A program made the position numbers and the translations under genes. The notes below the pieces were generated by a model, which was not told the DNA's origin, did no database searches, and saw nothing but the letters and a program-made list of their open reading frames with translations. Below, one piece after another: positions 1-44,176 of a DNA stretch of 54,411 nt (position 1 is its first letter; every line of letters begins with the position of its first letter). The stretch covers positions 1-54,411 of the forward strand of contig JBCCWZ010000001.1 of the NCBI GenBank assembly GCA_039192615.1, in the 5' to 3' direction. This DNA comes from Bacteroidota bacterium (GTDB lineage: Bacteria > Bacteroidota > Bacteroidia > Cytophagales > Amoebophilaceae).

Positions 1-271
1 CAACCAAGCAGTAGTAACAACGGTTCGCGGCAGACACGACCACAGCGATCATCTCCCGCTCCAGCTTGCTTAGCTTTGAGTTCGCCAGCATCACTTCGTT
101 ATACAACGTCGAGAACGCCCGGAGCTTATCCTGGTGACGCGAGTAGGTCCGAAGCACGTTCGGAATAAGCCCAAGCTTTTCTTCGCAGGTCTGAAAATAC
201 GCCTGCATATCGTCATCCAGTTCCGACGGAACCGGTAGATCGAAGATTGATACATGATCTGGCTGGGGCAA
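1..271 (-). CDS. carboxymuconolactone decarboxylase (AhpD-like, CxxC) family peroxidase-related protein; partial, runs off the window start
   Basis: Hand translation of a minus-strand frame that is not in the ORF track gives (TTG)PQPDHVSIFDLPVPSELDDDMQAYFQTCEEKLGLIPNVLRTYSRHQDKLRAFSTLYNEVMLANSKLSKLEREMIAVVVSAANRCYYCLV. The CYYC motif and overall pattern fit the CMD/AhpD-like family. GGAGG lies 8 nt upstream of the TTG at 269-271. The start is uncertain; an ATG at codon 22 is also possible. Confidence 0.6.
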   Translation of the reverse strand, partial: MPQPDHVSIFDLPVPSELDDDMQAYFQTCEEKLGLIPNVLRTYSRHQDKLRAFSTLYNEVMLANSKLSKLEREMIAVVVSAANRCYYCLV

Positions 272-694
272 GGTCCGACCTCCAATTGTGTCTTTTCTTG
301 GCCGACGAAGCGAAATCGCTTTGAGGCGCTGTTTCGTTAATGCGGCTGTTCAATTGCCAATATGAGTTATTGTCGAGCGATGCGAAATAAAGAAACAGTG
401 GCCTGAGTTTGGCGACGTTCTATGGACGCTAATCGGCGGCTTTTTTCATCTTCTTTTCAGATGCCTGAGCAGGAATACCAAACGCTCAGCAGGACTTTGC
501 GCATTTCTTCTACATCCGTCACAAGGGCGCTCGCTTACCAGAATGACTGCCCTCTTCTCGCCACATTCCAGCGTAGCCTACAAACCATGAATTCGAGTCC
601 TGGCGCTTACTACGCCTGACGGTTTCCGGTCGATGAAAACAGAAGATGAAGCCGCGCCCGGCAGCCTTCGGCGCGTGGTCGGGAGAGATCTGCC

Positions 695-2380
695 ATGAAC
701 GATACTACCGCCTATTTCGACGCCTCCAACCCTGACACCCCAGCCAATATGACAGCCTCCGTCGCAAGTACGGCCGTCAACGGTGTACCAAGTAGCGGTA
801 CTGGTTTGACCGGAGCCGCCTATGCGCCGGGTACTAGTATCTGGAACATAGACAAAGCCGCAGAAGCCGCTGCCGGTACCGCAGACGCAACCTTCGAAGC
901 CTCGGAGCTTTTCTTCCGCAGCAATGACAGCGAAACAACTGTTGCGGAATTTCTTGGTGATTTTGGCACGATAACAAGCGGTAACGGCGATGTGGAGATG
1001 GGCCCATCGGCGTTGACTTTCACGGGCTTCATTTACATCCCACCGGGCGTTCACGAGGTTGCCGTCATCTCCGACGATGGTTTTGATCTCAACATTGGCG
1101 GCGTCGATTTTTCAGAGTTTGCAAACGGTCGCGGCACTGACGAAACAGCTCGCGTTGCCGAGTTTGATGGCGGTCTATACCCCATTGAACTTCTCTACTT
1201 CGACGGCGGCGGCGGCATGTCTCTCAAGCTGGAAATCGATGGGTTGCCTGTCGATCAAAGCGCGTTTTATCAATCGGTTACTGACTTTACCAATCCTCCA
1301 CCGGATGTCCCTCTCGTTCCGATAGATGACTACCACCCGTCCTTCTTCATCCCAGAAACTGTGGACGGCGAAACAATATTTACCGCGTCAGAAACGCGCG
1401 ACGTTTTTATCGGCGACGGTGGCAACGACACGATTGACGGCGCTGGTGGCGACGATGAGATTATGGGCGGGTTCGGCGACGACATCCTGTCCGGCGGTGC
1501 CGGCAACGATGTCCTCGACGGCGGCTATGGATCGGATGTCCTCAACGGCGGCGAGGGTGACGACCTTTTGATTGCAGCGTCCGATGCGGGCGAACAGCGG
1601 ATTGGACAGTTGGCCATCGGTCAACCAACCCGCGATGATCCGGACGGCGAAGTCAACGAAGCGCTGCAGAAACTCGAGGCCTACAAATACGAAGCCATTG
1701 TCGGGGACGACGTACTCGTGGGCGGTGCTGGGGCAGATACCTTCCTCATCAAGCCCCAGATTGACGCCAAACTGGACATTATTCAGGAGCATGTCCGCGC
1801 CGATGGCACCATTAATTGGGCGGGCGTTGCAGGCGAAAATGATGAGCTGCACGACCACTGGGTTGATAGCTTTGGTATCGACATAATAGCCGATTACAAC
1901 GCGGCGGAAGACTCCATTGCGGTGATAGGGCACACTGCCGTGCCCTACGTTACATACGCGGACGTGATGGGTGATGAAGCACTCGAATCGATCATCACCG
2001 TGATCTCTGTCCAGCATGGGAACGGCGGCGCGCATGACCGCGACTTGATCGGTCAAGTGATCGTTCATGGGGACCTTGTCGACGTCGAGGACATTCAGAC
2101 CGACGACAATGTCACCTATGGCGTGGTGGACACTTATGATGAAATCGCGACCGCTCTTGCCGCACCGGGTGAAGAGAAGATGACCGAGATCGACGGTGAG
2201 TTGGTCAAAGGCTACGACACCCGTGGGCCTATGCAGATGATGGACGGCATGAATGGCGATGACCATGGTGGGCATGGTGGCCCCGGCACAAATATGCTTG
2301 GTGCAGTGACCGGCGATCCCTTTGGTGCTTTCGACAACGACAACTTCTCGCTTGATATGCTCTCCAAGGCTGGTTGGTAG
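695..2380 (+). CDS. PA14-domain / RTX (hemolysin-type) calcium-binding repeat protein, probably C-terminally truncated at the ~2353 junction
   Basis: 561-aa ORF. The N-terminal ~200 aa look PA14-like (GLTGAAY...FTGFIYIPPGVHEVAVISDDGFDLNIGG...LLYFDGGGGMSLKLEIDG). Tandem GGxGxDxL nonapeptides follow (GGNDTIDGAGGDDEIMGGFGDDILSGGAGNDVLDGGYGSDVLNGGEGDDLL, ~1405-1575), with a later GGAGADTFLI. Codon usage is GC3-rich. Confidence 0.8.
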   Translation: MNDTTAYFDASNPDTPANMTASVASTAVNGVPSSGTGLTGAAYAPGTSIWNIDKAAEAAAGTADATFEASELFFRSNDSETTVAEFLGDFGTITSGNGDVEMGPSALTFTGFIYIPPGVHEVAVISDDGFDLNIGGVDFSEFANGRGTDETARVAEFDGGLYPIELLYFDGGGGMSLKLEIDGLPVDQSAFYQSVTDFTNPPPDVPLVPIDDYHPSFFIPETVDGETIFTASETRDVFIGDGGNDTIDGAGGDDEIMGGFGDDILSGGAGNDVLDGGYGSDVLNGGEGDDLLIAASDAGEQRIGQLAIGQPTRDDPDGEVNEALQKLEAYKYEAIVGDDVLVGGAGADTFLIKPQIDAKLDIIQEHVRADGTINWAGVAGENDELHDHWVDSFGIDIIADYNAAEDSIAVIGHTAVPYVTYADVMGDEALESIITVISVQHGNGGAHDRDLIGQVIVHGDLVDVEDIQTDDNVTYGVVDTYDEIATALAAPGEEKMTEIDGELVKGYDTRGPMQMMDGMNGDDHGGHGGPGTNMLGAVTGDPFGAFDNDNFSLDMLSKAGW

Positions 2381-2601
2381 GGTGGCTGAAAAAGGAGTTT
2401 AAAGGAAAGAAAAATGAGGATTTGTGGCGGCGATTTTGGCGTGTATTTCAGCAGCATCAGGTAACGTTGCGCTGGATCAAAGGGCATGCAGGGCATCCAG
2501 AAAATGAGCGCTGTGACCAATTGGCTGTAAAAAGTGCACAAAAAAAAGAACTAGCCGAGGATAAAGGTTATCTTGATAGCCTAACATCTCAGTATTCATG
2601 A
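2356..2601 (+). pseudogene. rnhA: 5'-truncated ribonuclease HI fragment (C-terminal ~half only)
   Basis: [57 protein letters not shown] matches the RNase HI C-terminal half (..[13 protein letters not shown].LA). An in-frame TGA sits at 2353-2355 immediately upstream. The N-terminal catalytic half is absent. The stop overlaps the ogt start (ATGA). Confidence 0.8.
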
Positions 2602-3119
2602 ATGACTTTGCGGTTAATTTTCTGACCTACGAATCCAATACACCTGTTTACTATAACACCTACGCCTCTCCCTATGGAGATTTGGTGTTAATGACCACAG
2701 AGTCAGGCGTTTGTGGGCTTCATTTCCTAGAAGAACCACCGGCCTATTACTTACAATTAGCGGAAGAAAAATTGGGAGAAGTGCCTGTATTAGCCCCTGA
2801 GCGTACCCAAGCCTGGTGGGATTGTATACAGCAGGCTACGCAGCCGCTCCCATTGGTGGCACAGGGCACACCCTTTCAAATCAGTGTTTGGAAGGCTTTA
2901 TGTACGATTCCTTCTGGCACTACTCGCTCTTACCAAACGATAGCTAGGCAATTAGGACATACGCAAGGAGCGCGTGCTGTGGGCAATGCCGTGGCCAACA
3001 ACTTCATTGGTTGGTTGATTCCTTGCCATAGAGTGGTGCGCCAAAATGGGCAAATGGGGGGATATAGGTGGACGGTAGCTAGAAAAAAGGCGATTTTGGC
3101 AGCGGAAATGCATGGATGA
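2598..3119 (+). CDS. ogt: methylated-DNA--protein-cysteine methyltransferase
   Basis: 173-aa ORF with the active-site motif IPCHRVV and upstream TRSYQTIARQLGHTQGARAVGNAVANN, typical of the MGMT/Ogt DNA-binding domain. Confidence 0.85.
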   Translation: MNDFAVNFLTYESNTPVYYNTYASPYGDLVLMTTESGVCGLHFLEEPPAYYLQLAEEKLGEVPVLAPERTQAWWDCIQQATQPLPLVAQGTPFQISVWKALCTIPSGTTRSYQTIARQLGHTQGARAVGNAVANNFIGWLIPCHRVVRQNGQMGGYRWTVARKKAILAAEMHG

Positions 3120-3156: not shown

Positions 3157-3480
3157 CTACCGCATCCAATCAATGGGTAGCCCTCCTAGCATCCCCTGGG
3201 TATGCTGTTTGACTTCCTCTTGAATCTTTTCTTCTACGGCTTTATTAGCCAAGTTGACAGCGGCCACAATGAGGTCTTGCAGTATTTCCTTGTCATTGGG
3301 ATCAATGTACTCCTTGTCGATGTCCAAGCCTAGTACTTCTTTATGACCATTGACCGTAGCCTTGACAGCCCCCGCTCCAGCTTCGCCTGTGGCTTGCAAT
3401 TGGGCGAATTTTTGCTGCATCTCTTGCACTTTGGCCTGGGCTTCTTTCATCTGGCCCATCATTTTGGTGAAATCTTCCAT
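3157..3480 (-). CDS. ybaB: YbaB/EbfC family nucleoid-associated protein
   Basis: 107 aa. MMGQMKEAQAKVQEMQQKFAQLQATGEAGAGAVKATVNGHKEVLGLDID..DKEILQDLIVAAVN is the characteristic YbaB pattern. Confidence 0.85.
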   Translation of the reverse strand: MEDFTKMMGQMKEAQAKVQEMQQKFAQLQATGEAGAGAVKATVNGHKEVLGLDIDKEYIDPNDKEILQDLIVAAVNLANKAVEEKIQEEVKQHTQGMLGGLPIDWMR

Positions 3481-3506
3481 AAGCGAACTGATTTACGGTG
3501 CTAAAA

Positions 3507-4868
3507 CTACGATAATTCTTTCACCAACTGGTCTAGTGAACAGGATTGTTGCGTGCCGGTCTGCATGTTTTTCAACATGACGGTTTGAGTGGCATGTTCT
3601 TCTTCGCCAATGATGGCGACAAAAGGGAGATGGCGTTTGTGGGCATACTGCAACTGCTTTTTCAACTTGATAGGTTCTGGATATATTTCTGCTTGAATGC
3701 CGTGGGAGCGCAGTGCGGCCAGCACTTCTAAAGCCCATTTTTCTGATGTTGAGTCTAAGTTAGCCACTATCACCTGGGTAGCGGCACCCAGCGAATCGGG
3801 AAATAAGCCTAACTCTTCTACCACCTCATAAAGCCTATCCAGTCCGAAAGAAAAGCCTACCCCAGACACGCTAGGCAATCCAAAGACATCGGTCAGGCCA
3901 TCATACCGCCCACCGCCACCTATGCTGCCCCAGGCCATATCCTTGACTTTGACCTCAAATACAGCGCCGGTATAGTAAGAAAGTCCCCTAGCCAGCGTAG
4001 GATCAAGCGTGATGGCAGGCGCTTTGACCCCCAATGCCTGAACAGAGGTTAATATTTGTTGCAGCGCCTGTAGCCCAGATTGGCCCGCTTGGGTAGCTGC
4101 TAAATTTTCTGTCAAGACTGCCCATCGGTCCTCCTGCGTGCCAGGCAGGTCAAAGAGAAAGGCCAGCTTTTCCAGCGCCGTGGCTGTGAATCCTTTGCGC
4201 TGTAACTCCTCCAGCACCCGTTCTTGGCCCACCTTGTCCAGCTTGTCCAAAGCCACACACAAAGCTTCCTCTTGGTCAGCAGCGCCTACTAGGACTGCCA
4301 GCCCTTTGAGTACGCCGCGGTGGTTGATGTGGATGGTAAAATCCTTGACGCCGAGCTGCTGAAGTACTTCGTGGATAAGAACGAGTATTTCAGCCTCACA
4401 CAATAGGGAGCTTGTCCCTACTACGTCAATATCGCACTGATAAAACTCCCTATAGCGGCCTTTTTGGGGGCGATCTGCCCGCCATACGGGTTGTATTTGG
4501 TCGCGTTGAAAAGGAAAGACCAGCTGGTCTTTATTCATGACTACATACCGCATCAGGGGCACCGTCAGATCATAGCGCAGACCCTTTTTGGCTATCTGGG
4601 GTAGCAATACTTTGTAATCGCTACTTGGCGGCACTTCCCCAGCCAGAAAATCGCCTGAATTCAAAATTTTAAACAAGAGTTGGTCGCCTTCTTGGCCATA
4701 CTTACCCGTCAGGGTCTCCAGATTTTCTAAAGCAGGGGTCTCAAGGGGAAAGAACCCATACTTTTGGTAAGTGTTTTGGATGACGTCAACAATGTAATGT
4801 CGCTTGAACACTTGGTGGGCCCCAAAGTCGCGCGTCCCTTTGACGAGTGTTGGCTGTTTTCCCTTCAT
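3507..4868 (-). CDS. hisS: histidine--tRNA ligase
   Basis: 453 aa with class II HisRS motifs: KGTRDF, LRYDLTVPLMRYV, REFYQCDIDVVG, GGGGRYDGL. Confidence 0.9.
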   Translation of the reverse strand: MKGKQPTLVKGTRDFGAHQVFKRHYIVDVIQNTYQKYGFFPLETPALENLETLTGKYGQEGDQLLFKILNSGDFLAGEVPPSSDYKVLLPQIAKKGLRYDLTVPLMRYVVMNKDQLVFPFQRDQIQPVWRADRPQKGRYREFYQCDIDVVGTSSLLCEAEILVLIHEVLQQLGVKDFTIHINHRGVLKGLAVLVGAADQEEALCVALDKLDKVGQERVLEELQRKGFTATALEKLAFLFDLPGTQEDRWAVLTENLAATQAGQSGLQALQQILTSVQALGVKAPAITLDPTLARGLSYYTGAVFEVKVKDMAWGSIGGGGRYDGLTDVFGLPSVSGVGFSFGLDRLYEVVEELGLFPDSLGAATQVIVANLDSTSEKWALEVLAALRSHGIQAEIYPEPIKLKKQLQYAHKRHLPFVAIIGEEEHATQTVMLKNMQTGTQQSCSLDQLVKELS

Positions 4869-4900: not shown

Positions 4901-5347
4901 TCATTGATCCTGGGCCACAAAGCTATATATTCCCTCTTTATGATACTCCTGCGCCACCCAAGCGGCGATGCCTGGTGGTACTACGTTGGCCATCGTAGAA
5001 AGCGCAGCGATCGGTACAGTTTCAAACTCTATGTGATCCTCGTTAGCAATCACAGGATTGTCAAGCAAACCTAGGGGAGGGACTACTTTAAAGATGAAGT
5101 CGAATTCTTGATAACCTCTTCCTTGGTCCTGTCTGTGCCATTCTAAACAGCCTAATAGAGGTCCTATGGCGACATCAAGGGCTAGCTCTTCTTGTAACTC
5201 TCGGGCTAAGCAAGCTTGGAGATTCTCTCCTGGTTCCAGGGTGCCCCCTGGTAACATCCACTTCTGGATGCGTTTTTCCCAGCACATTAAAAGTTGGTGG
5301 CCATCGCTGATGATAGCCCTTGCTTTGATCAATAATTGGGGTGGCAT
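4901..5347 (-). CDS. NUDIX hydrolase
   Basis: NUDIX box GGTLEPGENLQACLARELQEELAL. I prefer the internal ATG at 5347 (MPPQLLIK..) because the track start at 5410 would overlap the mraY 3' end. Confidence 0.75.
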   Translation of the reverse strand: MPPQLLIKARAIISDGHQLLMCWEKRIQKWMLPGGTLEPGENLQACLARELQEELALDVAIGPLLGCLEWHRQDQGRGYQEFDFIFKVVPPLGLLDNPVIANEDHIEFETVPIAALSTMANVVPPGIAAWVAQEYHKEGIYSFVAQDQ

Positions 5348-5352
5348 AATAG

Positions 5353-6567
5353 TTAACGCAGTTTGAGTGTTACGAGTGTGAGAATAGCCAACAAAACCCC
5401 TACAATCCAAAACCGAGCTACGATCTTGGCTTCGTGTAGGCCCAGTTTTTGATAATGATGGTGAATAGGGGCCATCTTAAAAATCCGCTGGCCTACGCCA
5501 TATCTTCGTTTGGTATACTTGAAATAAGCGACCTGGATGATGACGGAGAGGTTTTCAATCACAAAGATGCCACAGAGCAGGGGAATAAGGAGCTCCTTCC
5601 TGATCATGATGGCCAGTACAGCAATGATTCCACCGATGGTCAAGCTGCCCGTATCTCCCATAAAAATCTGGGCAGGATACGCATTGTACCACAGAAAGCC
5701 TCCACAAGCTCCTACAAAAGCGGTACAAAAGATCACTAGCTCGCCCAGATTGGGAATATACATGATGTTGAGATACTGCGAGAAAATAACGTTGCCCGAT
5801 AGATAGGCTAGAATGCCCAAGGTAATCCCAATAATTGCTGAGGTGCCCGCTGCCAATCCATCCAATCCATCCGTCAGATTCGCCGCATTAGATACTGCTG
5901 CGACGATAAAGACGGCCATGAACACATACACAAGCCATGTGTACCGTTTGTCTAGGCCAGGAATGAGCTTGCTGTAATCTAATTCGTTGTTTTTGAAGAA
6001 AGGTACCGTGGTTTTTGTAGATTTTACATCCTTGAAAGTCACTGGTGTTGCTTCTCCCTGTTCGATGACTGCTACCGGTGTTTCCAGCTCTCGTACTACC
6101 ACGTCTTGATGAAAGTAAAGGGTAAGGCCCACAATGAGTCCCAATCCTACTTGTCCAAATAGCTTGAATCTTCCTGCTAGGCCCTCTCTGCCCTTTTTAA
6201 ACACCTTGATATAATCATCAATAAAACCAATGGTTCCCATCCATAGCGTAGCAGTGAGCAATAAGATGACGTAGGTATTGTCTAGCTTGGCAAAGAGCAG
6301 AGTAGGAATAATAATGGCGGCGATGATGCTAATACCTCCCATGGTGGGAGTGCGCCCCTTTGCGTCTTGCCCCTCCAGGCCCAGTGCTCGCACCCCATCT
6401 TTGATTTGTTGGGCCTGAAACAATCGGATTAGTTTTCTGCCTAGCACGATTGTGATGAGCACAGAGAGGATGGCTGCTGCTGCTGCTCTGAAGGAGATGT
6501 ATTTAAACACACCGGTGCCTGGCCAATTCAGCGCTTCATGTATGTATCGAAAAAGGTAATAAAGCAT
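5353..6567 (-). CDS. mraY: phospho-N-acetylmuramoyl-pentapeptide-transferase
   Basis: 404-aa polytopic membrane protein with MraY signatures ([36 protein letters not shown]). Confidence 0.9.
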
Positions 6568-6707
6568 GTTGATTACTTTTGGGGTGATATTTCAATAGAT
6601 CCTCATAGAGCGCTAAAAAAGCTTTCAGAAAATCACGGCTGTTGCAAAGCTTGTAAGTGGATAAAATTTAGTGAGGTTTGTGCTTAGCTGATGCCTTTTA
6701 TAGCAGC

Positions 6708-6737
6708 TTGAAACTTTGGTTGCCCCAAATATATTTG
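6708..6737 (+). promoter_or_regulatory. candidate Bacteroidota sigma-A promoter for the mreB operon (-33 TTG / -7 TAtaTTTG)
   Basis: TTG at 6708-6710 and TATATTTG at 6730-6737 are separated by a 19-nt spacer, matching the published Bacteroidetes consensus TTG..19 bp..TAnnTTTG. The site is 144 nt upstream of mreB. This is a motif match only. Confidence 0.3.
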
Positions 6738-6880
6738 TGCTTGCATGATTTTAATAACTAAGCGCTCTAGTATTAAAACCAACAAGTCCTACAGGGGAGG
6801 TCCAAAAAATTTCTATAAATTAGGCAAGGTTCTGCTAGGGACTCGCAGAATACGTCGTGCTCACCGAAAATTCATAAAAA

Positions 6881-7912
6881 ATGGGACTGTTAGACTTCCT
6901 TTATAGTGACATTGCTGTTGATTTAGGCACCGCCAATACACTAATTGTACAAAATGATAATATAGTAGTAGATGAGCCTTCGATTATAGCAATTAATAGA
7001 GATACGAATAAACTGATTGCTGTGGGCAAAAATGCTATGCAAATGCATGAAAAAACCCATAATAACATCAAGACGATTCGTCCTTTAAAAGATGGTGTCA
7101 TTGCAGACTTTCATGCAGCTGAGCACATGATTCGAGGTATGATCAAAATGATCACCCCTACTAAATGGAGGTTCCTCACACCCTTGTCGCGTAGAATGGT
7201 TATTTGTATTCCTTCGGGGATTACAGACGTTGAAAAGCGAGCTGTAAGAGACTCTGCAGAGCATACAGGGGCCAAAGAGGTCTACATGATTTCTGAGCCA
7301 ATTGCAGCGGCTATTGGGATAGGTATTGACATAGAGGCCCCTGTAGGCTCTATGATCGTGGATATTGGGGGAGGGACAACAGAGATTGCTGTCATTGCGC
7401 TTTCAGGTATTGTGTGTGACCAGTCTATAAAAATCGCAGGAGATGTTTTTAGCAAGGATATTTTGGATCATATGCGCCGAAAGCATAACCTGCTGATTGG
7501 TGAGCGAACGGCTGAGAAGATTAAACTAGGCGTAGGTGCTGCACTAGAAGCGCTCGATAATCCTCCTGATGAATTTGAAGTGCGTGGGAGAGACCTCATG
7601 ACCGGTATCCCCAAAGTTGTTCGAATCAATCATCAAGAAATCACCTCAGCATTAGAAAAATCTGTCCTTAAAATTGAAGAAGCTATTTTAAAAGCACTAG
7701 AAATGTCTCCTCCCGAGCTGGCTGCAGATATCTACGAGAATGGTATTTACCTGACAGGAGGGGGTGCCCTTTTACGTGGACTGGACAAAAGGCTAGCGCA
7801 AAAAACAAAGCTACCGGTACATATAGCCGAAGATCCGCTCCAGGCAGTAGTCCGGGGTACAGGTATTGCTTTAAGAAACTTAGACGCGTACAAGAGCGTA
7901 CTAATGACTTAA
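6881..7912 (+). CDS. mreB: rod shape-determining protein MreB
   Basis: 343-aa actin-like ATPase: DLGTANTL, VICIPSG, DIGGGTTE, LTGGGALLRGLD. Confidence 0.95.
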   Translation: MGLLDFLYSDIAVDLGTANTLIVQNDNIVVDEPSIIAINRDTNKLIAVGKNAMQMHEKTHNNIKTIRPLKDGVIADFHAAEHMIRGMIKMITPTKWRFLTPLSRRMVICIPSGITDVEKRAVRDSAEHTGAKEVYMISEPIAAAIGIGIDIEAPVGSMIVDIGGGTTEIAVIALSGIVCDQSIKIAGDVFSKDILDHMRRKHNLLIGERTAEKIKLGVGAALEALDNPPDEFEVRGRDLMTGIPKVVRINHQEITSALEKSVLKIEEAILKALEMSPPELAADIYENGIYLTGGGALLRGLDKRLAQKTKLPVHIAEDPLQAVVRGTGIALRNLDAYKSVLMT

Positions 7913-9405: not shown

Positions 9406-11207
9406 TGCGTTTTCATAGAGGCCATATTATTCAGGCAGCCTTTACCCTTGTAGGGCTTATTTTTCTTGTAAGGCTATTCTTCATCCAGGTATTAAGTGAT
9501 GGCTACCAGTTGGCTGCCGAAAAGAACATCATCCAACCGGTCATAGAATATTCTTATCGAGGAGCCATTCACGATCGTCATGGAGAATTTTTAGTCTATA
9601 ATGTGCCTATTTATGACCTCATGGTCATTCCGAAAGAGGTAAGGAACCTTGATACCTCGGCTTTTTGTCAAGACCTTGGGATTGATCTAACTACCTTTCA
9701 TCAGGCCCTAAAAAAGGCTAAGCGCTACTCCTATGTCAAACCCTCTGTTTTCCTTAAAAACCTATCGCAAGCCACCTGGGCGAAAATCCAAGATCATTTT
9801 TCAGAGTATCCAGGGTTCTTTGTACAAGCCCGTACTGTACGAGAATACCCCCTCCCCATGTTAGCCCATACCCTAGGATATGTAGGTGAAATAAGTCCCC
9901 AGCAGCTAGCCGCAGATACGGCCCATGCTTACAGGCAGGGCGACGTGATTGGCATCAGTGGCTTAGAAAAAAGGTATGAAGTAGTCTTGAGAGGGCAGCT
10001 AGGAATTCGATATGAAGTCAGTGACGTCAAAGGAAGAGGCAAAGGAAAATTTAGAGGCGGCGCGTTAGACCGGGCTGCTGTACCTGGCCAGGACCTCAGG
10101 ACTACCCTGGATGCTGGCTTGCAACGATATGGAGAGCAGCTGATGGAACATAAGCTGGGCAGTGTCGTGGCTATAGCTCCTCAGACAGGTGAAATCCTTG
10201 CTTTAGTGTCTAGCCCTTCGTACGATCCTAATTTGTTGACAGGAAGAGAGTTAGGGAGTAATTTTGCTGCCTTAGGGCAAGACCCGCTTGCGCCGCTTTT
10301 TCATAGGCCCATCATGGCCATGTATCCCCCAGGTTCTATTTTTAAGCTCAGCCAAGCACTGATTGCCCTGCAAGAAAAGGTGATCAGTACGCATACAACC
10401 TATGTTTGTAATAAAAAACTAGTCAACTGCCACTCTCACCCTTCGCCTTTAAGCCTCCATAAAGCGATCAAGCACTCCTGTAATCCATATTTTTATCACG
10501 TATTTAAAAAACTTATCAATCCCCAAGTATCCGATAATACGTATGAAGATACCCGTATAGGGCTTAAACGGTGGTGTCGCTACTTGAAAAGCTTTGGCTT
10601 TGGCATCCCCCTCGGGGTAGACCTGCCAGGGGAGAAGGGGGGGTGTGTGCCTGATCCGGAGCTGTACGATAGACGCTATGGCAAGAGGCGCTGGAAAGCC
10701 TCTACCATTAGGTCGTTAGATATTGGCCAGGGAGAGTTGCTGCTGACTCCTTTGCAGATGGCTAATTTTGCTGCTACCGTGGCTAATCAGGGCTACTATT
10801 ATACGCCGCACGTGATTCAGCAGATAGGCGAGTGCCCTATGGTGCTATCAGAGGAACAGGACAAGCATGAGGTAGCGATTGATCGGGCCTACTTTGCATT
10901 CGTAGCCAATGCTATGCAAGAAGGAGTAGAAGGTGGCACTTCTCGGCGCGCACATGTTCCAGGTATCGACATCTGTGCCAAAACAGGTACGGCTGAAAAC
11001 CCGCATGGCGAAGACCATTCTATCTGTATCGCCTTTGCCCCTAAAGAAGACCCTCAAATAGCTCTGGCGGTGTGTGTGGAAAACGCTGGTTGGGGCTCTC
11101 GGGCTGGTGCGTCTATAGCTGGCCTACTGATAGAACAATACTTGCGGGGAACCGTTAGTCGCCCCTGGATCGAAGATTATGTACTCAAAGGAGACTTTTT
11201 TCATTGA
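9405..11207 (+). CDS. mrdA: penicillin-binding protein 2 (elongasome transpeptidase)
   Basis: Motifs SxxK (GSIFK), SxN (HSCN) and KTGT are present, with an N-terminal TM. I prefer the ATG at 9405 (MRFHRGHII..), which overlaps the mreD stop, over the track start at 9345. Confidence 0.9.
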   Translation: MRFHRGHIIQAAFTLVGLIFLVRLFFIQVLSDGYQLAAEKNIIQPVIEYSYRGAIHDRHGEFLVYNVPIYDLMVIPKEVRNLDTSAFCQDLGIDLTTFHQALKKAKRYSYVKPSVFLKNLSQATWAKIQDHFSEYPGFFVQARTVREYPLPMLAHTLGYVGEISPQQLAADTAHAYRQGDVIGISGLEKRYEVVLRGQLGIRYEVSDVKGRGKGKFRGGALDRAAVPGQDLRTTLDAGLQRYGEQLMEHKLGSVVAIAPQTGEILALVSSPSYDPNLLTGRELGSNFAALGQDPLAPLFHRPIMAMYPPGSIFKLSQALIALQEKVISTHTTYVCNKKLVNCHSHPSPLSLHKAIKHSCNPYFYHVFKKLINPQVSDNTYEDTRIGLKRWCRYLKSFGFGIPLGVDLPGEKGGCVPDPELYDRRYGKRRWKASTIRSLDIGQGELLLTPLQMANFAATVANQGYYYTPHVIQQIGECPMVLSEEQDKHEVAIDRAYFAFVANAMQEGVEGGTSRRAHVPGIDICAKTGTAENPHGEDHSICIAFAPKEDPQIALAVCVENAGWGSRAGASIAGLLIEQYLRGTVSRPWIEDYVLKGDFFH

Positions 11208-15484: not shown

Positions 15485-16363
15485 CTAAGCTCTAGGATGG
15501 GCTTGTTGAAAGACCTCTTTCAGTTTTTTGAGGGAATGGTGGGTGTACAGCTGTGTGGCGGCTAGGCTTTCGTGGCCCAACAAGTCTTTGATCGCATTAA
15601 GGTCTGCCCCTTTGCTCAGTAGGTGGGTAGCAAAAGTATGCCGCAGCACATGCGGACTATACCGGTCTGCATGCGTGTGGGTACGTAGGTATTTCTTGAC
15701 CAGTCTGTATATCATCATAGGGTAGCAAGGAGCGCCTGTAGCCGTCACCAAGAGCAAACCTTTAGGATTACTCACTGTAGCATCTCTGTGCATCTTGTAC
15801 TGCTCAATCACCTGGCGCAAAGTTTTGGGAAAGGGCACAGTACGTTCTTTGTTGCGCTTGCCCCAAACCCTGATCGTGTTGTCATACAGATCAACAGCCG
15901 CATCTTGCAGCGTCAACAATTCTGCCAAGCGAATACCCGTGCCGTACAGTAGTTCTAGGATGAGTTTATCACGCCAGCCTTCGAATGTATTCTCAAACTC
16001 GTGATGCTCTAGCAGGTCTAGGAGTTCTTTTTCTTGCAGAAAGACAGGCAGGGTTTTTTTGAGTTTGAGCCTACTTAGGTGCAGAGTGGGGTCTTGTTTA
16101 ATGTAAGCCTGGGTATATAGGAATTTGTAGAAAGCTTTAAGGGCGGCAATCTTTCGGTTGATGGAGCGGTTGCTTAAGCCTTGTTGTGCCAACGCCACAA
16201 TCCATGCACGTAGGGCTTGGTGGGTAGCTGTTTCCAGTGCGCTCGCTGGGGCCTGGGTTTGTAGGTAAGCAGTGCATTGCTTGAGGTCTGTGCCGTAGGC
16301 CTGGACTGTATGGGGGCTTAGGCGCTTTTCACTGGCTAGGTATTGTATAAAAGCAGCAATCAT
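15485..16363 (-). CDS. tyrosine recombinase XerC/XerD family
   Basis: 292 aa with an N-terminal SAM-like domain and the catalytic residues in GIRLAEL, HVLRHTFATHLL and LGHESLAATQLYTH. Confidence 0.85.
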   Translation of the reverse strand: MIAAFIQYLASEKRLSPHTVQAYGTDLKQCTAYLQTQAPASALETATHQALRAWIVALAQQGLSNRSINRKIAALKAFYKFLYTQAYIKQDPTLHLSRLKLKKTLPVFLQEKELLDLLEHHEFENTFEGWRDKLILELLYGTGIRLAELLTLQDAAVDLYDNTIRVWGKRNKERTVPFPKTLRQVIEQYKMHRDATVSNPKGLLLVTATGAPCYPMMIYRLVKKYLRTHTHADRYSPHVLRHTFATHLLSKGADLNAIKDLLGHESLAATQLYTHHSLKKLKEVFQQAHPRA

Positions 16364-16409
16364 GGTTGTATAGGCGCCCCTAAATATTGAGCCATGTGCT
16401 TACCAAGGG

Positions 16410-16610
16410 TTACGCGTTGGCTTGCATCTTTTGCTTGTAGATGGCTTTGAGCTTTTCTTCTCTGCGTTGTATGGATGGTTTCTTGTAGTACATCCTTGCT
16501 CGGAGTTTTTTCAATACCCCTATCTGCTCATATTTCTTTTTAAACCGTTTTAAAGCTCTATCAACAGTCTCATTGTCTTTGACATGTATGGTAATATTGC
16601 TCTCACTCAT
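16410..16610 (-). CDS. rpsU: 30S ribosomal protein S21
   Basis: 66 aa: VDRALKRFKKKYEQIGVLKKLRARMYYKKPSIQRREEK. Confidence 0.9.
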   Translation of the reverse strand: MSESNITIHVKDNETVDRALKRFKKKYEQIGVLKKLRARMYYKKPSIQRREEKLKAIYKQKMQANA

Positions 16611-16729
16611 CGTGTTTTTTTATTTGTTTGGCGCAGTGGGCAAAGATAGCCTAGAAATAATAATGCGCCAAGTAGTTAGTATGATCTCCTCAGTGTCTGA
16701 TCTGCCGATGTAGCCTGCTTGTCAAGCCT

Positions 16730-18250
16730 TTACTTGGCATAGTTGATGGCTCTTGTTTCTCTAATCACGATTACTTTGACCTGGCCTGGATACTGTAGCT
16801 GTTGCTCAATTTTGCCGGAGATTTCAAAGGCCATTTGCTTTGCTTCCTCATCGGTAACGCTGTCAGCATCGACCATGACCCTGAGTTCTCGCCCTGCTTG
16901 TATAGCATAACATTTTTTCACCCCTCCAAAAGACAGGGCAATATCTTCCATCTCTCGCAGCCTTTTCACATAGGCTTCTACTACTTCTCGCCGTACGCCT
17001 GGCCTGGAGCCAGAGATAGCATCACAGGCTTGTACAATGGGGGCGATCATGGAAGTCATCTCTATCTCATCGTGATGGGCGCCAATAGCATTGCATACTT
17101 CTGGGCGTTCTCTATATTTTTTAGCCATTTCCATACCGAGTAGTGCGTGCGAAAGATCAGATTTCTCTGCTGATACCTTGCCAATGTCATGCAGTAACCC
17201 GGCGCGTTTGGCTAGCTTACTATTGAGCCCTAGCTCTGAGGCCATGGTGGCTGTGAGATGGGCGACCTCTCGGGAGTGATGCAGTAGGTTTTGTCCATAA
17301 GAGGAGCGGTAACGCATCCTGCCCACCATCTTGATCAGCTCTATGTGCATTCCATAGATACCTAGGTCGATCACGGTACGCTCTCCTGTGTCCATGATCT
17401 CTTTGTCTATGATCTTCTCTACCTTATCCACTACCTCTTCAATGCGAGCGGGATGTATTCTACCGTCTTGGATAAGCTGCTCCAGTGCTAGGCGGGCAAT
17501 TTCTCTCCTCACGGGGTCAAAGCTGGAGAGCAGTACGGTTTGGGGAGTGTCGTCTATAATGATGTCTACGCCTGTGGCGGTTTCTAAAGCACGAATGTTT
17601 CTGCCTTCTTTGCCGATGATTTTACCTTTTAAGGTATTGTTCTCGAGGTTAACTACTGAGGTACTGTTCTCTATCGTTTGCTCTGCTGCGGTACGCTGGA
17701 TGGTGGTTAGAATTACTTTTTTAGCTTCTTTTTCAGCATTGGTTTTGGCTTCGTCTACGATGGCCCTGAGGTGTCTAGAAGCGTTTGCTTTGGCTTCATC
17801 TTCTAGTGCTTCCAGTAGCTGTTCTTTAGCTTTTTCTGCGCTTAGGTGAGCGATACCTTCTAGCTGTTGAGCTTTTTGTACCTTGAGTTGTTCGAGGTCT
17901 TCTTTTACCTTGTCTAGCGCTAGCTCTTTGCGGTGCAGCTGCTCTAGTTGGTGGGTCATTTCCTGCTCCTTGCTTCGTAAGTAGTTTTCTTCATTAAGAA
18001 GCTTTTCTTTCCTTCTGCCTACGCCTTGTTCAAATTCTGCTTTTAGGCTAACAAACCGCTCTTTGGCTTCTAGTATCTTTTCTCTTTTGATCTTGGCTGC
18101 TTCTGCCTTGGCGGCTTTGATAATAAGTCTGGCTTTTCTCGCAGCCTGCTTTTCTTCGTATTTGTCAAATAGTGCAGCCGCAATTCTATCCAATGCTATC
18201 CCTAGAGATAGCATGAGTACACTTAAGATGAAAATTTGCGTTATACTCAT
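16730..18250 (-). CDS. rny: ribonuclease Y
   Basis: 506 aa with an N-terminal TM, a long coiled-coil, a KH domain ([15 protein letters not shown]) and an HD domain (LLHDIGK). Confidence 0.9.
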
Positions 18251-18330
18251 GTGTTGCTAGTAGGTAGACTGAGGCTATCCCGCAAGGAATGCTTGGGGAA
18301 GGCACTTAGTTTTGTCATACTTAGGCAAAG

Positions 18331-18648
18331 CTATCTAGGGGACGTGCTGTCAGGAGCTAAAGGTGGAAGCGTTTGGTCTACTAGCTCAATCAAGTTACTG
18401 ACCTGCTTCGTAAGCGCTTTCGTCGCCAAGGTTGCTCCCTCTTCGGCCCTCAAGGTGTCTATAAGACAGTCAAACGCTACCATAGCTAGTAGGTCTTGTT
18501 GATCCTTGATACCAAATTGATCCCTGTATGCCTTTACTTGTTCATTCACCCGCTTGCTGGCTGCTCTTACACGTGCTTCGTCTGCTGCCTGTACCTTCAT
18601 AGGGTACACCCGGTCGCATATTCTGATGTTTACAGCAAGTTCTTCCAT
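18331..18648 (-). CDS. zapA: cell division protein ZapA
   Basis: 105 aa: VNIRICDRVYPMKVQAADEARVRAASKRVNEQVKAYRDQF is the typical ZapA pattern. The position upstream of rny is conserved. Confidence 0.8.
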   Translation of the reverse strand: MEELAVNIRICDRVYPMKVQAADEARVRAASKRVNEQVKAYRDQFGIKDQQDLLAMVAFDCLIDTLRAEEGATLATKALTKQVSNLIELVDQTLPPLAPDSTSPR

Positions 18649-18938
18649 TACTGACGCTGTTCAAGGTAGGCGATGCTTTTGTCGATGTCCTTGATGTAAC
18701 GTTCAATGCTACTGCCCAACGCCCGTGCCTGTTCTTCGTTGACGATAATAGTACCAATTTCTGGCTTATTTGAAAAATTGCCTGGTGTCTCCACGCCGTT
18801 GTTAGCTTTTTGCTGCCATTGTGCCTGCTCCTCTTGGAGTTGCTGAATGATTTCTTGTTGCGTTTTGCAACGCTCTATTAATTCCTTGAGCTTCTGTTCC
18901 AAGGTCTGGATGTGTGCTTGCAGTTTTTCACTGTTCAT
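18648..18938 (-). CDS. small coiled-coil protein of unknown function
   Basis: 96-aa Q/E-rich heptad-like sequence. It is tightly packed: 1 nt after the pheT stop, and its stop overlaps the zapA start (TAATG). Confidence 0.55.
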   Translation of the reverse strand: MNSEKLQAHIQTLEQKLKELIERCKTQQEIIQQLQEEQAQWQQKANNGVETPGNFSNKPEIGTIIVNEEQARALGSSIERYIKDIDKSIAYLEQRQ

Positions 18939-18939
18939 C

Positions 18940-21354
18940 TTATCCTCTTATCAGTGCTCCTAGTTGGGTCTCAAAAGCACGCATCAGGCGCGCCATTACC
19001 TGGTCAATCGTCTTGTCATCCAGGGTTCTATCTTTTCCTTGCAGTACAAAGCTTAATGCATAGGCTTTTTTGTTGGGGCCCAGCTTTTCTCCTTCGTAGA
19101 CATCAAAGACGGTGAAGTCCTGGATGAGCTTATTATTTTGTTGAGCGATGACTTTCCTCACAGCTTCAAAGCTGACTGCTTGGTCCAGTACCAAAGAAAT
19201 ATCCCTTTTCACCGGCGGGAATTTAGAGATTGCCTGGTACTGCCTGAGGGGCTTCCAATTGCTTAACAAGGTATCCCAATCTATATCCACAAAAAACACA
19301 GGTTGGGCAATGTCCAAGTGCTTCAACAAGGTAGGGTGTACTTGCCCAGCAGTGAGTAGCTGTATCTGGTCTAGTAATATTTGAATGCCCTCCTGATAAA
19401 AAGCACTTTGTAAAGGCTCAGTGGCAAAGTCCGTAACGCCTAGTTGATATAGCACCTGATGCACCAGGACATGCAGCTCCTGGAAGGTCGCCGACTGGGG
19501 CTTTCTCATCCAATTGACCGCTTCCATGTTCCCTGTAAGCCATATCCCTAGCCTGTTGTCTTCTACATATTGTTGGCCCGTCTTGCGATAGATTTTGCCG
19601 AATTCAAAAAGCTTGAGGTCTGACTGTTTTCTATTGATATTGTGGGCGATCACTTCTAGGCCTCCAAAAAGCAGGGTTTGCCTGAGTACATCCAGGGTTT
19701 CACTGAGCGGATTGGTAATAGCGACACTTTGTTGGGAGTCAAGGGCATCAGTTAATTCTGCATAAGCCGATTTTGTCAGTGAATTGGTATAGATTTCATG
19801 ATACCCCTGAGCAGCCAAGAGCGCTGCTACCTGTTGCTTGAATTGATGAGGGGTTGGGTAGCTGGTTCTGGCTAAGTAGGTACTGCCTAGCTGGCCTTTG
19901 GCTTCGATGCGGTCGTAGCCATAGATCCTGGCTATTTCTTCAATGATGTCTGCTTCTCGTTTTACGTCTGTGCGATAGGGGGGGACTGAAGCTATCAAGC
20001 TGTCCGTCTCTTCCTGGCTAATGGTTATCTCCAGTTGTTTGAGAATCTGGTGTATAGTTTCCTTAGGAATCGTTTGCCCTAGCAGTCGCTTGATATGTTT
20101 GTAATGCACTTTTACCCTGGTAGGCTCTATCTTTTCAGGGTAGTGGTCAATCAGCTCAGAGGCAATTTTCCCTTGGGCAATTTCCTGGATCAGTAAGCAA
20201 GCTCGCTGCAATGCGTAGACGGTGCGGTCAGGGTCTGTGCCTCGCTCATACCGGAAGGAAGCATCTGTTTTCAGGGCATGTTGTTTAGCAGCCTTCCTGA
20301 TGATGCCTGGCGAAAAATAGGCACTCTCTAAAAAGATGTTCTGAGTATCTGCGTGGATGCCTGCGTGTTGGCCTCCTAGAATGCCAGCCATGCCTAGGCC
20401 GCCTGCTTGATCAGCAATCATGAGTTCTGTGCCATCCAGTTTTCTTGTTATACCATCTAGCGTGACCAACGAAGTATCTGGCTTAAGCTGTCCGACCGTG
20501 ACCTGCTTCCCCGTAATCTGGTCGTAATCAAATGCATGGAGCGGCTGCCCTAGTTCATGCATGACAAAGTTGGTCACATCCACGATGTTGTTGATCGGGC
20601 TTAGACCAATGGCCCTTAGCTTATCCCTAAGCCACGGGGGAGAGGGTTGTACTTTTACGCCACTGATCGTGATGCCTGCGTACCTTGGACAGGCGCTAGG
20701 GTCTAGCACTTCTACTTGGATGGGTAAGCGCTCTGCAGTTGGCTCAAATGTTGTTACAGTAGGATATTGTACCGAACGGTCTAATAGGGCTCCTAGCTCT
20801 CTGGCAACGCCTAAGTGAGAACAAGCATCACCTCTGTTGGGCGTCAGGTCTATTTCAATAATTTCGTCTGGCTGGCTATGAAAGAGCTGGGCAGCAGGCG
20901 TGCCAGTGGGCAGCGCCGTATCCAATACCATAATGCCTTCATGGGCATCTCCTAGTCCAATCTCATCTTCAGCACAAAGCATTCCCTCTGAAACTTCTCC
21001 TCTAATTTTGGCCTTTTTGATTTTCAACGTTGAGCCGTCTTGGCCGTATAGTTGGGTGCCTACAGGTGCTACGATGACTTTTTGTCCTGTTTGTACATTA
21101 GGAGCGCCACAGACAATGCGCAAGGGGGTATCTTGGCCCACATCAATCTGTGTTACTTGTAGCTGATCAGCATTAGGATGCTTCTCACAAGTCATTACCT
21201 GACCAATCAATAACCCTTTTAAACCTCCCTTAATAGGCTCAAAAATTGTTCTCCCTACTACTTCCAGGCCGCTCTGGGTAAGCAGCTGGGCTACTTCCTC
21301 AGGGCTCTCTGAGAGTTGGATATAGTCTTTGAGCCAGTTCAGTGATATTTTCAT
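18940..21354 (-). CDS. pheT: phenylalanine--tRNA ligase beta subunit
   Basis: It begins with the typical MKISLNWLKDYI, followed by a tRNA-binding domain (CEKHPNADQL), B3/4 and B5 domains, and a C-terminal anticodon-binding-like domain. I prefer the ATG at 21354 over the track start at 21384. Confidence 0.9.
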   Translation of the reverse strand: MKISLNWLKDYIQLSESPEEVAQLLTQSGLEVVGRTIFEPIKGGLKGLLIGQVMTCEKHPNADQLQVTQIDVGQDTPLRIVCGAPNVQTGQKVIVAPVGTQLYGQDGSTLKIKKAKIRGEVSEGMLCAEDEIGLGDAHEGIMVLDTALPTGTPAAQLFHSQPDEIIEIDLTPNRGDACSHLGVARELGALLDRSVQYPTVTTFEPTAERLPIQVEVLDPSACPRYAGITISGVKVQPSPPWLRDKLRAIGLSPINNIVDVTNFVMHELGQPLHAFDYDQITGKQVTVGQLKPDTSLVTLDGITRKLDGTELMIADQAGGLGMAGILGGQHAGIHADTQNIFLESAYFSPGIIRKAAKQHALKTDASFRYERGTDPDRTVYALQRACLLIQEIAQGKIASELIDHYPEKIEPTRVKVHYKHIKRLLGQTIPKETIHQILKQLEITISQEETDSLIASVPPYRTDVKREADIIEEIARIYGYDRIEAKGQLGSTYLARTSYPTPHQFKQQVAALLAAQGYHEIYTNSLTKSAYAELTDALDSQQSVAITNPLSETLDVLRQTLLFGGLEVIAHNINRKQSDLKLFEFGKIYRKTGQQYVEDNRLGIWLTGNMEAVNWMRKPQSATFQELHVLVHQVLYQLGVTDFATEPLQSAFYQEGIQILLDQIQLLTAGQVHPTLLKHLDIAQPVFFVDIDWDTLLSNWKPLRQYQAISKFPPVKRDISLVLDQAVSFEAVRKVIAQQNNKLIQDFTVFDVYEGEKLGPNKKAYALSFVLQGKDRTLDDKTIDQVMARLMRAFETQLGALIRG

Positions 21355-23726: not shown

Positions 23727-23816
23727 TGGCAGAGGGTGAGGGATTCGAACCCCCGGTACTCTCGCGAGTACAACGGTTTTCAAGACCGCCGCGTTAAACC
23801 GCTCCGCCAACCCTCT
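23727..23816 (-). tRNA. tRNA-Ser (anticodon UGA)
   Basis: Cloverleaf folded by hand. Acceptor stem AGAGGGT/ACCCTCT, anticodon stem-loop GCGGT-CTTGAAA-ACCGT (anticodon TGA), long variable arm (GTACTCGCGAGAGTAC), T arm GGGGG-TTCGAAT-CCCTC, discriminator G, and an encoded CCA. Confidence 0.9.
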
Positions 23817-32518: not shown

Positions 32519-33754
32519 ATGGATAGTAAAACACTTATTGAATCCTTTGCAGAGTTTGCCCGGTCTAAAAACATCGATCGGCCTACCGTCATTAGGATTT
32601 TAGAGGATGTCTTTAAAGCGATGATCCGCAAGAAGTTTGAGGTAGATGATAACTTTGACATTATCATCAACCTAGATGAAGGCGACTTGCAGCTATGGCG
32701 TTTTAGGGAGGTCGTGGATGATAACTCGGAGGATATTTGGGATCACGACAAGATCAGCTTGTCGGAGGCGCATAAGATAGAGGCGGATTTTGAGATAGGC
32801 GAGGAGGTAGCCGAGGAAGTTAAGTTGGAGAGTTTTGGCCGTAGAGCGATTATGACGGCTAAACAGGCGCTGATTCAAAAAGTAAAAGACTTAGAAAAAG
32901 ACGTCATCTACAACAAATACGCCCAATTGACCGGGGAAATGATCACAGCAGAAGTCTACCAAGTATTGAGTAGAGATGTGCTGCTGCTAGATGATGAAAA
33001 GAACGAGCTTACCCTGCCCAAATCAGAGCAAATTCCCAAAGATCGCTTCAAGAAAGGCGACTACGTACGGGCTATTGTACACAAGGTAGAGCTAGAAAGA
33101 AGCACCCCAAGAGTAGTACTCTCCAGAACCTCGCCTGTATTTTTAGAACGACTGTTCGAGAGCGAAGTGCCTGAAATAGAGGAAGGCCTCATCACCATCA
33201 AAAAAGTAGTACGAGAACCTGGAGAAAGAGCCAAAGTAGCGGTAGAGTCTTATGACGATCGCATTGACCCCGTAGGCGCCTGCGTAGGCATGAAAGGTTC
33301 CAGAATCCACAGCATTGTCAGAGAACTACAAAACGAAAACATCGATGTAATCAACTATACCGACAACCTAGACCTCTACATCGCCCGTGCACTTAGTCCC
33401 GCCAAAATAAGCAGTATGCAGCACAAAGAAGACCGGGTGGCTGTTTACCTCAAGCCCGACCAAGTTTCTTTAGCCATTGGCAGAGGCGGACAAAACATTA
33501 AGCTAGCGAGCCGGCTGATTGGCAAAGAGATCGATGTGTATAGAGAACTTGACGACCAAGAGGAGGACGTAAGTATCGAAGAATTTGCCGATGAGATAGA
33601 AAGCTGGATCATCGAGGAACTGAAGAAAATAGGGCTTGATAGCGCCAAAAGTGTCCTAGCAGTCTCTAAAGAAGACCTAGAAAGGCGCACAGACTTGGAG
33701 CAAGAGACCATTGATGAGCTATACCGTATTTTAAGCCAAGAATTTGAAGAGTAA
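32519..33754 (+). CDS. nusA: transcription termination/antitermination factor NusA
   Basis: [32 protein letters not shown], then S1 and two KH domains ([23 protein letters not shown]). I prefer the ATG at 32519 over the track start. Confidence 0.9.
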
Positions 33755-33767
33755 TAACACTAGCCCC

Positions 33768-42880: not shown

Positions 42881-43106
42881 GCGATGCTAAATTATGGGAG
42901 CCCAATATAATTATTATCGTTGGGCATTTAAAAATAGAGGCCGTAAAGCGTACAAAGCAGTAGCATTGCTTACCAGGGCGCATTAGGTGCCTAGTAGTTC
43001 CTGCTTACAAGCCGATTGAGAAGTATGGCCTGTATCGGGGAGCGTTTTATGGCTAGCTGCCTCTACACTGACTTATTCCGTTGACAGTTTCTGTAGCTCG
43101 TAAGAA

Positions 43107-43949
43107 TCAACGGTCGTTAAAATCAGGTATATGTTCTTGTATAAACTTTTTCACGGTGTGGGCAGGGATGGCATCGGAATAAATGCCATATTTGGTAAAA
43201 CTTACTCCCCTATTAATGGCCATTAATTTTTTCTTATCATTTACTACCGCTCCCCCGCTAGCCCCTGGACAGTTTGAATAAGTACAATGAATGAGATTCT
43301 GTGACCCTCGGGTGACTGTATAACCCTTGTAATAGCCTACACTGCCGCTGTACTTGGTTGAAGGGTATCCTATCATAAAAAGGCGGCCATCATCCGTTAG
43401 TGTACTGGAATTGCCAAACTCGAGATAGGGAAGGCCATCCTTTACTTCTTGAAGCTTAAGTAGTGCAAGGTCTTTCTGGACATCTCGTTTTTTTAACTCA
43501 GCAGTATAAACAGTACCCTCATCCTCTGTACATGCTACTGTAGCTGATCGATAGTTGAGAGGAATACAATGACTATTGGTAATAATATACCCGTCCCTAC
43601 TTATAATAACCCCCGATCCTAGTGAAGTTATCAACCTATCACCTATTGATTCACCTATTACTATAGATAGGATTTTTACTACAGCGGGCTTTACATCCTG
43701 TAAGATTTTGGATAGTTCCTCATCTATGTCAAGAGACATATCTCCTTTTAGTGTTGTATCATGTTCTGTTGAGAGATCCTTTTTGACTTTGAAGTAGGTT
43801 ATGAATTCCTGATTCTGTTGTTTGAGAACCTCAACCTGCTTTCCGAGTTTTTCTGATGCTACTGACGATGCAGATGGAGTATGACAACTTGCTACCACTA
43901 AGGCGCTTGCCACTATCATAGGTGCCCAGCCGTGTCTCTGATATTTCAT
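43107..43949 (-). CDS. trypsin-like (S1) serine protease lipoprotein, no PDZ (paralogue A)
   Basis: 280 aa with lipobox VVASC at the N-terminus. The triad lies in ITNSHCI, DLALLKL and PGASGGAVV. Confidence 0.75.
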   Translation of the reverse strand: MKYQRHGWAPMIVASALVVASCHTPSASSVASEKLGKQVEVLKQQNQEFITYFKVKKDLSTEHDTTLKGDMSLDIDEELSKILQDVKPAVVKILSIVIGESIGDRLITSLGSGVIISRDGYIITNSHCIPLNYRSATVACTEDEGTVYTAELKKRDVQKDLALLKLQEVKDGLPYLEFGNSSTLTDDGRLFMIGYPSTKYSGSVGYYKGYTVTRGSQNLIHCTYSNCPGASGGAVVNDKKKLMAINRGVSFTKYGIYSDAIPAHTVKKFIQEHIPDFNDR

Positions 43950-44176
43950 TGATCAGTATATTTTGTAAATAAACATTGCAAACTTACCAGATAACTACCC
44001 TAAATGCTATTACCGTACCATGCGTTTATTATAAGCTGTTGGTCTGGGAGCCCTCTACTATTTTACACTGGTGATCTATAGTTTGGGGATTTACCACCTT
44101 CAATGGTTCTTACCCATAGGTGAGGAGCATCGGAAAGTTCGACAGGTGGAGAGAGCTGCTTAAGGCGAGCTAATGC

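Follow-up and report, generated by a model that had tools for sequence, protein, structure and literature searches.

Gene content of the two segments

The window, which is the entire 54,411-nt contig, is made up of two segments of different origin that meet between positions 2365 and 2366. The left segment (1–2365) lies at the contig end and is Rhodobacterales-like Pseudomonadota DNA. The right segment (2366–54411) is part of the core chromosome of a Bacteroidota organism from an uncultured, Cytophagales-like lineage, an assignment drawn from its histidyl-tRNA synthetase (HisRS), synteny, housekeeping genes and tetranucleotides. The left side carries a CMD-family (carboxymuconolactone decarboxylase-like) gene and the 5′ part of a gene for an RTX calcium-binding protein, and the right side opens with the 3′ part of rnhA.

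The CMD-family gene (2–283, minus strand) is cut by the contig end. The sequence-only reading had already placed it in this family, and the match to Pfam PF02627 (E = 6.7e-8) agrees. The RTX gene (695–2365, plus strand) retains its native codons 1–557 and has lost its 3′ part. The segment is colinear with two contigs of another NCBI record, the Pseudomonadota MAG GCA_039025695.1, of which L001 (JBCCNS010000269.1) covers 3–2088 at 91.4% nucleotide identity and L026 (JBCCNS010000155.1) covers 1236–2365 at 96%. Relatives of the RTX ORF are all Pseudomonadota with Roseobacter-type names (among them Boseongicola, Litoreibacter, Silicimonas, Ovoidimarina and Paracoccaceae). The CMD gene also adjoins the RTX gene in L001 and in a more distant relative, L032, where the same locus consists of CMD on the minus strand, an 873-aa RTX-LamG gene on the plus strand and then a transporter. 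In L026 the continuation of the RTX gene is followed by a LamG/RTX ORF and then an ABC transporter, and the native order in the relatives is CMD, RTX/LamG, ABC transporter. The RTX gene differs from that of L026 by 30 synonymous and 8 non-synonymous codons (32 of 42 differences at the third position), and from that of L001 by 106 and 11 (111 of 124). As these differences are mostly synonymous, the left segment is ordinary live alphaproteobacterial DNA and not a decaying or ameliorating relic.

On the right, the rnhA fragment (2366–2601, plus strand) is followed by the first intact gene of this side, encoding an O6-methylguanine-DNA methyltransferase of the ogt/ada type (MGMT; 2598–3119, plus strand; PF01035, E = 4e-30). 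In the ORF list ybaB (3157–3480) and hisS (3507–4868) come next, both on the minus strand. The relatives share the arrangement gidA(−), marC(+), rnhA(+), ogt(+), ybaB(−), hisS(−), mraY(−), which was found in the ENA scaffold L002, in 14 Logan contigs of several runs (L027–L030) and in the NCBI record L031; ogt sits directly after rnhA in L002 and in L027–L031 as well. The marC–rnhA pair is intact in all of the related Bacteroidota contigs retrieved, none of which is from the same species. Neither marC nor gidA occurs anywhere in the 54,411-nt contig. Further core genes on the right side are mreBCD, PBP2, rodA, tpiA, a xerD-like gene, rny, pheT, radC, uvrA, nusA, infB, cysS, rpsG, fusA and rpsJ. 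HisRS is 80–82% identical to proteins from metagenome contigs, 69% identical to a protein recorded as ‘MAG: Bacteroidota bacterium’ and 54–58% identical to those of the Cytophagales genera Rufibacter, Pontibacter, Dyadobacter, Runella and Marivirga.

An intact rnhA from the same species was sought by searching genome contigs with the MGMT protein, the best match being only 37% identical, and an exact look-up returned no identical MGMT or RTX proteins on other contigs. The sequence-only reading had proposed two unrelated origins, with a Bacteroidota-type gene set on the right, and separate homology searches of the two sides as a check. These searches return Pseudomonadota on the left (91–96% nucleotide identity to GCA_039025695.1) and Bacteroidota/Cytophagales on the right, where the relatives of HisRS and the conserved Bacteroidota synteny coincide.

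The composition of the two segments differs in the same way. GC content is 55.0% for 1–2352 versus 47.6% for the remainder, and the spot values given earlier for two short stretches, 57% for 1–60 and 67% for 1441–1500, were correct on recount. The GC-rich third codon positions noted at that time on the left are also seen, with GC3 values of 0.62 (RTX) and 0.66 (CMD) versus 0.41 (RNase H fragment) and 0.46 (MGMT). The tetranucleotide distance between the left piece and the rest is 0.0389 (z = 9.2), compared with 0.0169 ± 0.0024 and a maximum of 0.0239 for 22 equal-sized chunks of the right side. Tetranucleotide log-likelihood ratios were calculated from two models trained on external relatives only, with the parts that align to this contig left out. 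Of the 1-kb bins, the first two resemble alphaproteobacteria by this ratio and all later ones Bacteroidota, the ratio being positive in the left segment only. The cumulative ratio peaks at 2349, which is the change point given by composition only.

Position and nature of the joint

A hard junction within 2330–2400 is confirmed, far beyond chance. The sequence-only reading had set it at about 2353; the junction itself is real, and its true site is 10–13 nt further right, between 2365 and 2366, inside both the rnhA and the RTX genes. BLAST and a three-way alignment place an exact switch of homology at this position. The BLAST alignments to all five Bacteroidota relatives (L002 and L027–L030) begin exactly at 2366, and the ungapped alignment to the Pseudomonadota contig L026 extends through 2365. 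Across the joint, the three-way display gives identities that fall from 91% on the left to 18% on the right for L026, and rise from 22% to 78% for L002 and from 22% to 87% for L027.

The joint reads ...GATATGCTCTCC/AAGGCTGGTTGG..., where the slash marks the breakpoint. It is blunt, with neither filler bases nor microhomology, and the join is seamless, without Ns. An adapter or linker was rejected as its basis: the two alignments meet without a single unaligned base between them, which leaves no room for one. The hexamer GCTGGT, which is common to both sources, was likewise considered as a microhomology and rejected. It is displaced by 3 nt between the two, and the BLAST alignment to L026 can be extended to 2374 only via a 3-nt gap. 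A template switch at GCTGGT is rejected because positions 2366–2369 (AAGG) already fit the Bacteroidota relatives, and because such a switch would not leave ‘AAG’ in between. The joint belongs to the deposited NCBI contig of 54,411 nt, which also carries the 561-aa RTX ORF and an RNase H call of 59 aa, and was therefore not made by the choice of window.

The two truncated genes

One gene is truncated on each side of the joint, as the sequence-only reading had it: the RTX gene after codon 557 and rnhA before residue ~78. As read across the joint, the complete RTX ORF spans 695–2380 and encodes 561 aa. Its RTX character is supported by a match to PF00353 (E = 2e-13, 50.5 bits), which covers GGxGxDxUx calcium-binding nonapeptide repeats. 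The ORF had been described earlier as a PA14/RTX gene; the RTX part of this description holds, and the N-terminal region of the 561-aa ORF is PA14-like with a sub-threshold match (18.3 bits versus a cut-off of 24), several homologues carrying an annotated PA14 domain. The homologues are 717–955 aa in length and go on past ‘...NFSLDML’ with a LamG domain, and in the protein alignment every aligned homologue extends 160–400 residues past the end of the 561-aa ORF. In the closest relative, L026, the native continuation is ‘...DMLSAGAGDEEALLETRAPFE’, also given as ‘...NFSLDMLSAGAGDEEALLETRAPFE’, and the part missing from the contig would begin ‘GCTGGTGCAGGTGACGAAGAAGCG...’. The native C-terminus, where an RTX substrate of type I secretion would be expected to have its secretion signal, is thus absent from this ORF in the homologue alignment, as had been suspected, and the reading frame ends instead in a read-through tail translated from rnhA DNA, K-A-G-W-stop (2366–2380, plus strand). 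The earlier statement that the ORF crosses the joint is correct; its count of eight further codons before the stop becomes four foreign codons once the joint is placed between 2365 and 2366.

The rnhA fragment corresponds to residues ~78–151 of the 151 of RNase HI and has no start codon. It matches positions 78–140 only of the 141 in the PF00075 profile, compared with positions 5–140 for a full-length relative of 151 aa. With the full-length L002 protein as a tblastn query, residues 78–151 were matched at 91% identity, and the N-terminal half was found nowhere in the 54,411-nt contig. The rnhA genes of the relatives encode 151 aa from a TTG codon that overlaps the end of marC, with the sequence ‘MIKIYTDGSS...NNRMEL...YSDS’. 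Residues 1–77 are lost here, and with them the acidic residues of YTDGS (D), NNRMEL (E) and YSDS (D), which we take to be the equivalents of D10, E48 and D70 of E. coli RNase HI; their absence had been correctly recognized before. In comparison with the RNase HI of Bacteroidota, the 74 retained residues are therefore a close match to the C-terminal half of the nearest relative, but they form a fragment that lacks the start codon and three of the four DEDD carboxylates. With half of the domain missing, the piece is predicted not to work as an RNase HI.

The similarity to RNase HI had been thought to start at the tyrosine codon at 2356. This is a coincidence: the ‘YALQ’ in question comes from translating alphaproteobacterial DNA in the frame of RNase H. 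Equating this residue with the tyrosine of the E. coli enzyme was rejected, as close relatives have ‘...DAVNKGWLVGW’, which places the onset of similarity at G-W. Genuine RNase H sequence begins at AAG GCT... in the DNA and at ‘GWLVGWLKK’ in the protein, and the bases just 5′ of AAGGCTGGTTGG in the native gene would be ‘...GATGC.GT.AA.AA’. The TGA reported at 2353–2355 is present in the RNase H frame, but it is incidental. The RTX and rnhA fragments lie in different reading frames and therefore do not give a fusion protein. The cut falls within a domain in both genes and, judged from their sequences, nothing functional would be expected to result from either.

Origin of the joint and its consequences

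The joint fails as the border of a mobile-element or tRNA-linked island. No integrase was found at the joint and no transposase in the contig, the only tRNA of the contig lies at 23727–23816 and none is at the joint, and there are no meaningful direct or inverted repeats flanking it. The tRNA, repeat and gene-content searches therefore agree with the sequence-only reading, which had seen no inverted repeat, integrase, transposase or tRNA there. An XerC/D-like recombinase (15485–16363) was considered as an island integrase and rejected; it is 13 kb away, among core genes, and has the architecture of a housekeeping Xer protein. Like genomic islands, the locus shows a sudden shift of composition and taxonomy within a core chromosome. 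It differs from them in lacking an integrase or transposase as well as a tRNA or an att-like repeat, in that its border lies inside a gene of an essential-type housekeeping operon, in its truncated cargo gene and in its single border, only one being visible as the foreign piece is terminal. A local rearrangement was also rejected, as the contig contains neither marC and gidA nor the 5′ half of rnhA.

The contig shows every sequence-level feature of an inter-genome chimeric contig, namely a switch of homology, a change of composition and cut genes without a coherent product. We consider it, with a probability of roughly 90%, to be an inter-genome chimera, an artefact of assembly or library preparation rather than of biological origin. 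The join would have arisen outside a cell, in vitro or in silico. The suggestion of the sequence-only reading that a chimeric or artificial join is likelier than a clean natural insertion is made probable by the homology switch, the truncations, the lack of mobile-element marks and the intact native context in relatives. On this reading, 2,365 bp from the chromosome of a Rhodobacterales-like alphaproteobacterium, presumably co-sampled, would have become joined end-to-end to the chromosome of the Cytophagales-like Bacteroidota organism, midway through rnhA. The piece comprises the CMD gene, the intergenic region and codons 1–557 of the RTX/LamG gene. The cause may have been a chimeric template or read (a ligation-type library chimera or a long-read chimera) or, alternatively, a false link in the assembly graph where coverage was low at the tip of a contig, after which the assembler would have run along the foreign genome to the contig end. 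A misjoin by a de Bruijn assembler normally depends on a k-mer that both sources have in common. The two sources share no sequence or k-mer at the joint; a collapsed repeat is therefore not the cause, and the need to assume a chimeric molecule or read counts against this reading.

Inter-species translocations are the commonest class of misassembly in the CAMI benchmarks (metaMIC preprint, doi 10.1101/2021.06.22.449514). The present contig shares with this class, which is the target of MetaQUAST, metaMIC and DeepMAsED, the two unrelated genomes, the single breakpoint, the composition change and the cut genes, as well as a foreign part that is short and terminal and would add contamination to a MAG. 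It differs from typical de Bruijn chimeras, which pass through a shared k-mer (rRNA, IS elements or conserved genes), in that its sources share nothing at the joint, a difference suggestive of a chimeric template or read.

The same blunt joint can be read as a genuine and very recent inter-phylum transfer, since the collapse of an assembly graph does not give a blunt joint without a shared k-mer, and since the NCBI record, as deposited, already contains the joint. Alphaproteobacterial DNA would then have been integrated by illegitimate (end-joining-type) recombination with destruction of rnhA, and the contig would happen to end 2.4 kb into the insert. The loss of rnhA could be tolerated, the gene being dispensable in E. 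coli. This reading is nevertheless very unlikely. Integrase, transposase, tRNA, repeats and microhomology are all absent from the joint, only one junction is seen and no second, and the insert, which breaks off within a gene, carries nothing selectable or mobile. The foreign DNA shows no amelioration, its substitutions follow a pattern of purifying selection, and the native marC–rnhA context is undisturbed wherever it was retrieved. A 24-mer spanning the joint had 0 matches in the JGI metagenome contigs, which is weak evidence against transfer because the lineage itself is not in that collection (a degenerate rnhA pattern also gave 0). Such a transfer would ask that a free-living Cytophagales-like cell had very recently taken up naked chromosomal DNA of a co-resident Rhodobacterales bacterium and joined it into the middle of rnhA by homology-independent end joining, with no mobile element involved, a course of events to which we give little credence.

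A misjoin made after assembly, by scaffolding, gap-closing, bin reassembly, contig merging or manual curation instead of through a chimeric read, would account for a terminal foreign piece joined seamlessly without Ns, and merging tools are able to butt contig ends together. Mergers based on overlap need a terminal overlap, however, which is lacking here, and scaffolders normally leave Ns; such a misjoin is less probable still than the transfer. A chimera formed in the library or during assembly would differ from it solely in the stage of origin.

With an inter-genome chimera as the preferred reading, the junction is in all likelihood not a real biological feature. A genuine joint would be of moderate importance, as a rare case of recombination between phyla, newly made and independent of any mobile element, caught in the act. 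The main value of the finding is one of quality control: bases 1–2365 ought to be removed from the contig, and the gene calls of 561 aa and 59 aa dropped. If left untrimmed, the piece could be mistaken for inter-phylum gene transfer or for a virulence-type gene in Bacteroidota. As deposited, the contig adds Pseudomonadota CMD and RTX ‘adhesin/toxin’ genes to a Bacteroidota genome, presents a fake fusion ORF of 561 aa and makes the organism appear to be without a functional RNase HI.

Start of the RNase HI gene in the Bacteroidota relatives

The public gene calls for RNase HI of the Bacteroidota lineage (P0121-P0137) are annotated at 105-116 aa, with the annotated start being an internal methionine within the motif 'NNRMEL'. 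In two relatives of the right side of the window, an ENA scaffold (L002, rnhA at 3383-3838) and a Logan contig (L027, rnhA at ~9872-10327), the missing N-terminus ('IKIYTDGSSRGNPGPGGYG...') is encoded in frame upstream of this annotated start. The upstream reading frame can be followed back as far as a TTG codon overlapping the end of marC, and the resulting 151-aa version matches Pfam RNase_H at positions 5-140/141. The short public calls are a systematic start-codon mis-annotation in this lineage.

Gene content and composition of the Bacteroidota segment

An extra ORF on the minus strand (window 4901-5410), matching the NUDIX hydrolase family PF00293 (E = 1.5e-16), sits between hisS and mraY and overlaps the start of mraY by 58 nt. 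It is absent from the hisS-mraY position of L027 and of the NCBI record L031. These two relatives carry a gliding/T9SS cluster of gldK-like, gldL, gldM and gldN genes between mraY and mreB (L027 13934-18480; L031 3958-8350), whereas in the window mraY directly adjoins mreB with no intervening gld cluster (interval 6567-6881), and gldKLMN was not found by tblastn anywhere in the 54 kb. This absence could be the result of a lineage-specific deletion or of relocation.

Further along the window, three tandem trypsin-like protease genes are found on the minus strand (41405-44899), one of the HtrA/DegP type with PDZ domains and two that are shorter. The tandem is located where the GC content of the contig is lowest (41-43% at 43-45 kb), and the region is the largest tetranucleotide outlier of the right side of the window (d = 0.0239). 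The AT skew is strong and of opposite sign in two stretches, -0.27 to -0.31 at 16000-19000 vs +0.29 to +0.34 at 33000-35000. The first coincides with the minus-strand genes rny/pheT and the second with nusA/infB, which are encoded on the plus strand, so the skew probably reflects a coding-strand purine bias.

RTX-LamG genes in the Pseudomonadota MAG

Two contigs of the Pseudomonadota MAG GCA_039025695.1 are related to the left side of the window. In L026 (JBCCNS010000155.1) an in-frame TAG at 1182-1184, following '...ETRAPFE', splits the RTX-LamG gene; the homologues P0002 and P0003 are each a single protein (717-873 aa), uninterrupted at this position. The gene may be a pseudogene, the stop may be a sequencing error, or the split may be genuine. 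Both L026 and the second contig, L001, overlap window 1236-2088 and carry diverged versions of the RTX region (96.0% and 91.4% identity to the window, respectively), which suggests either a mixture of strains in the bin or paralogous loci.
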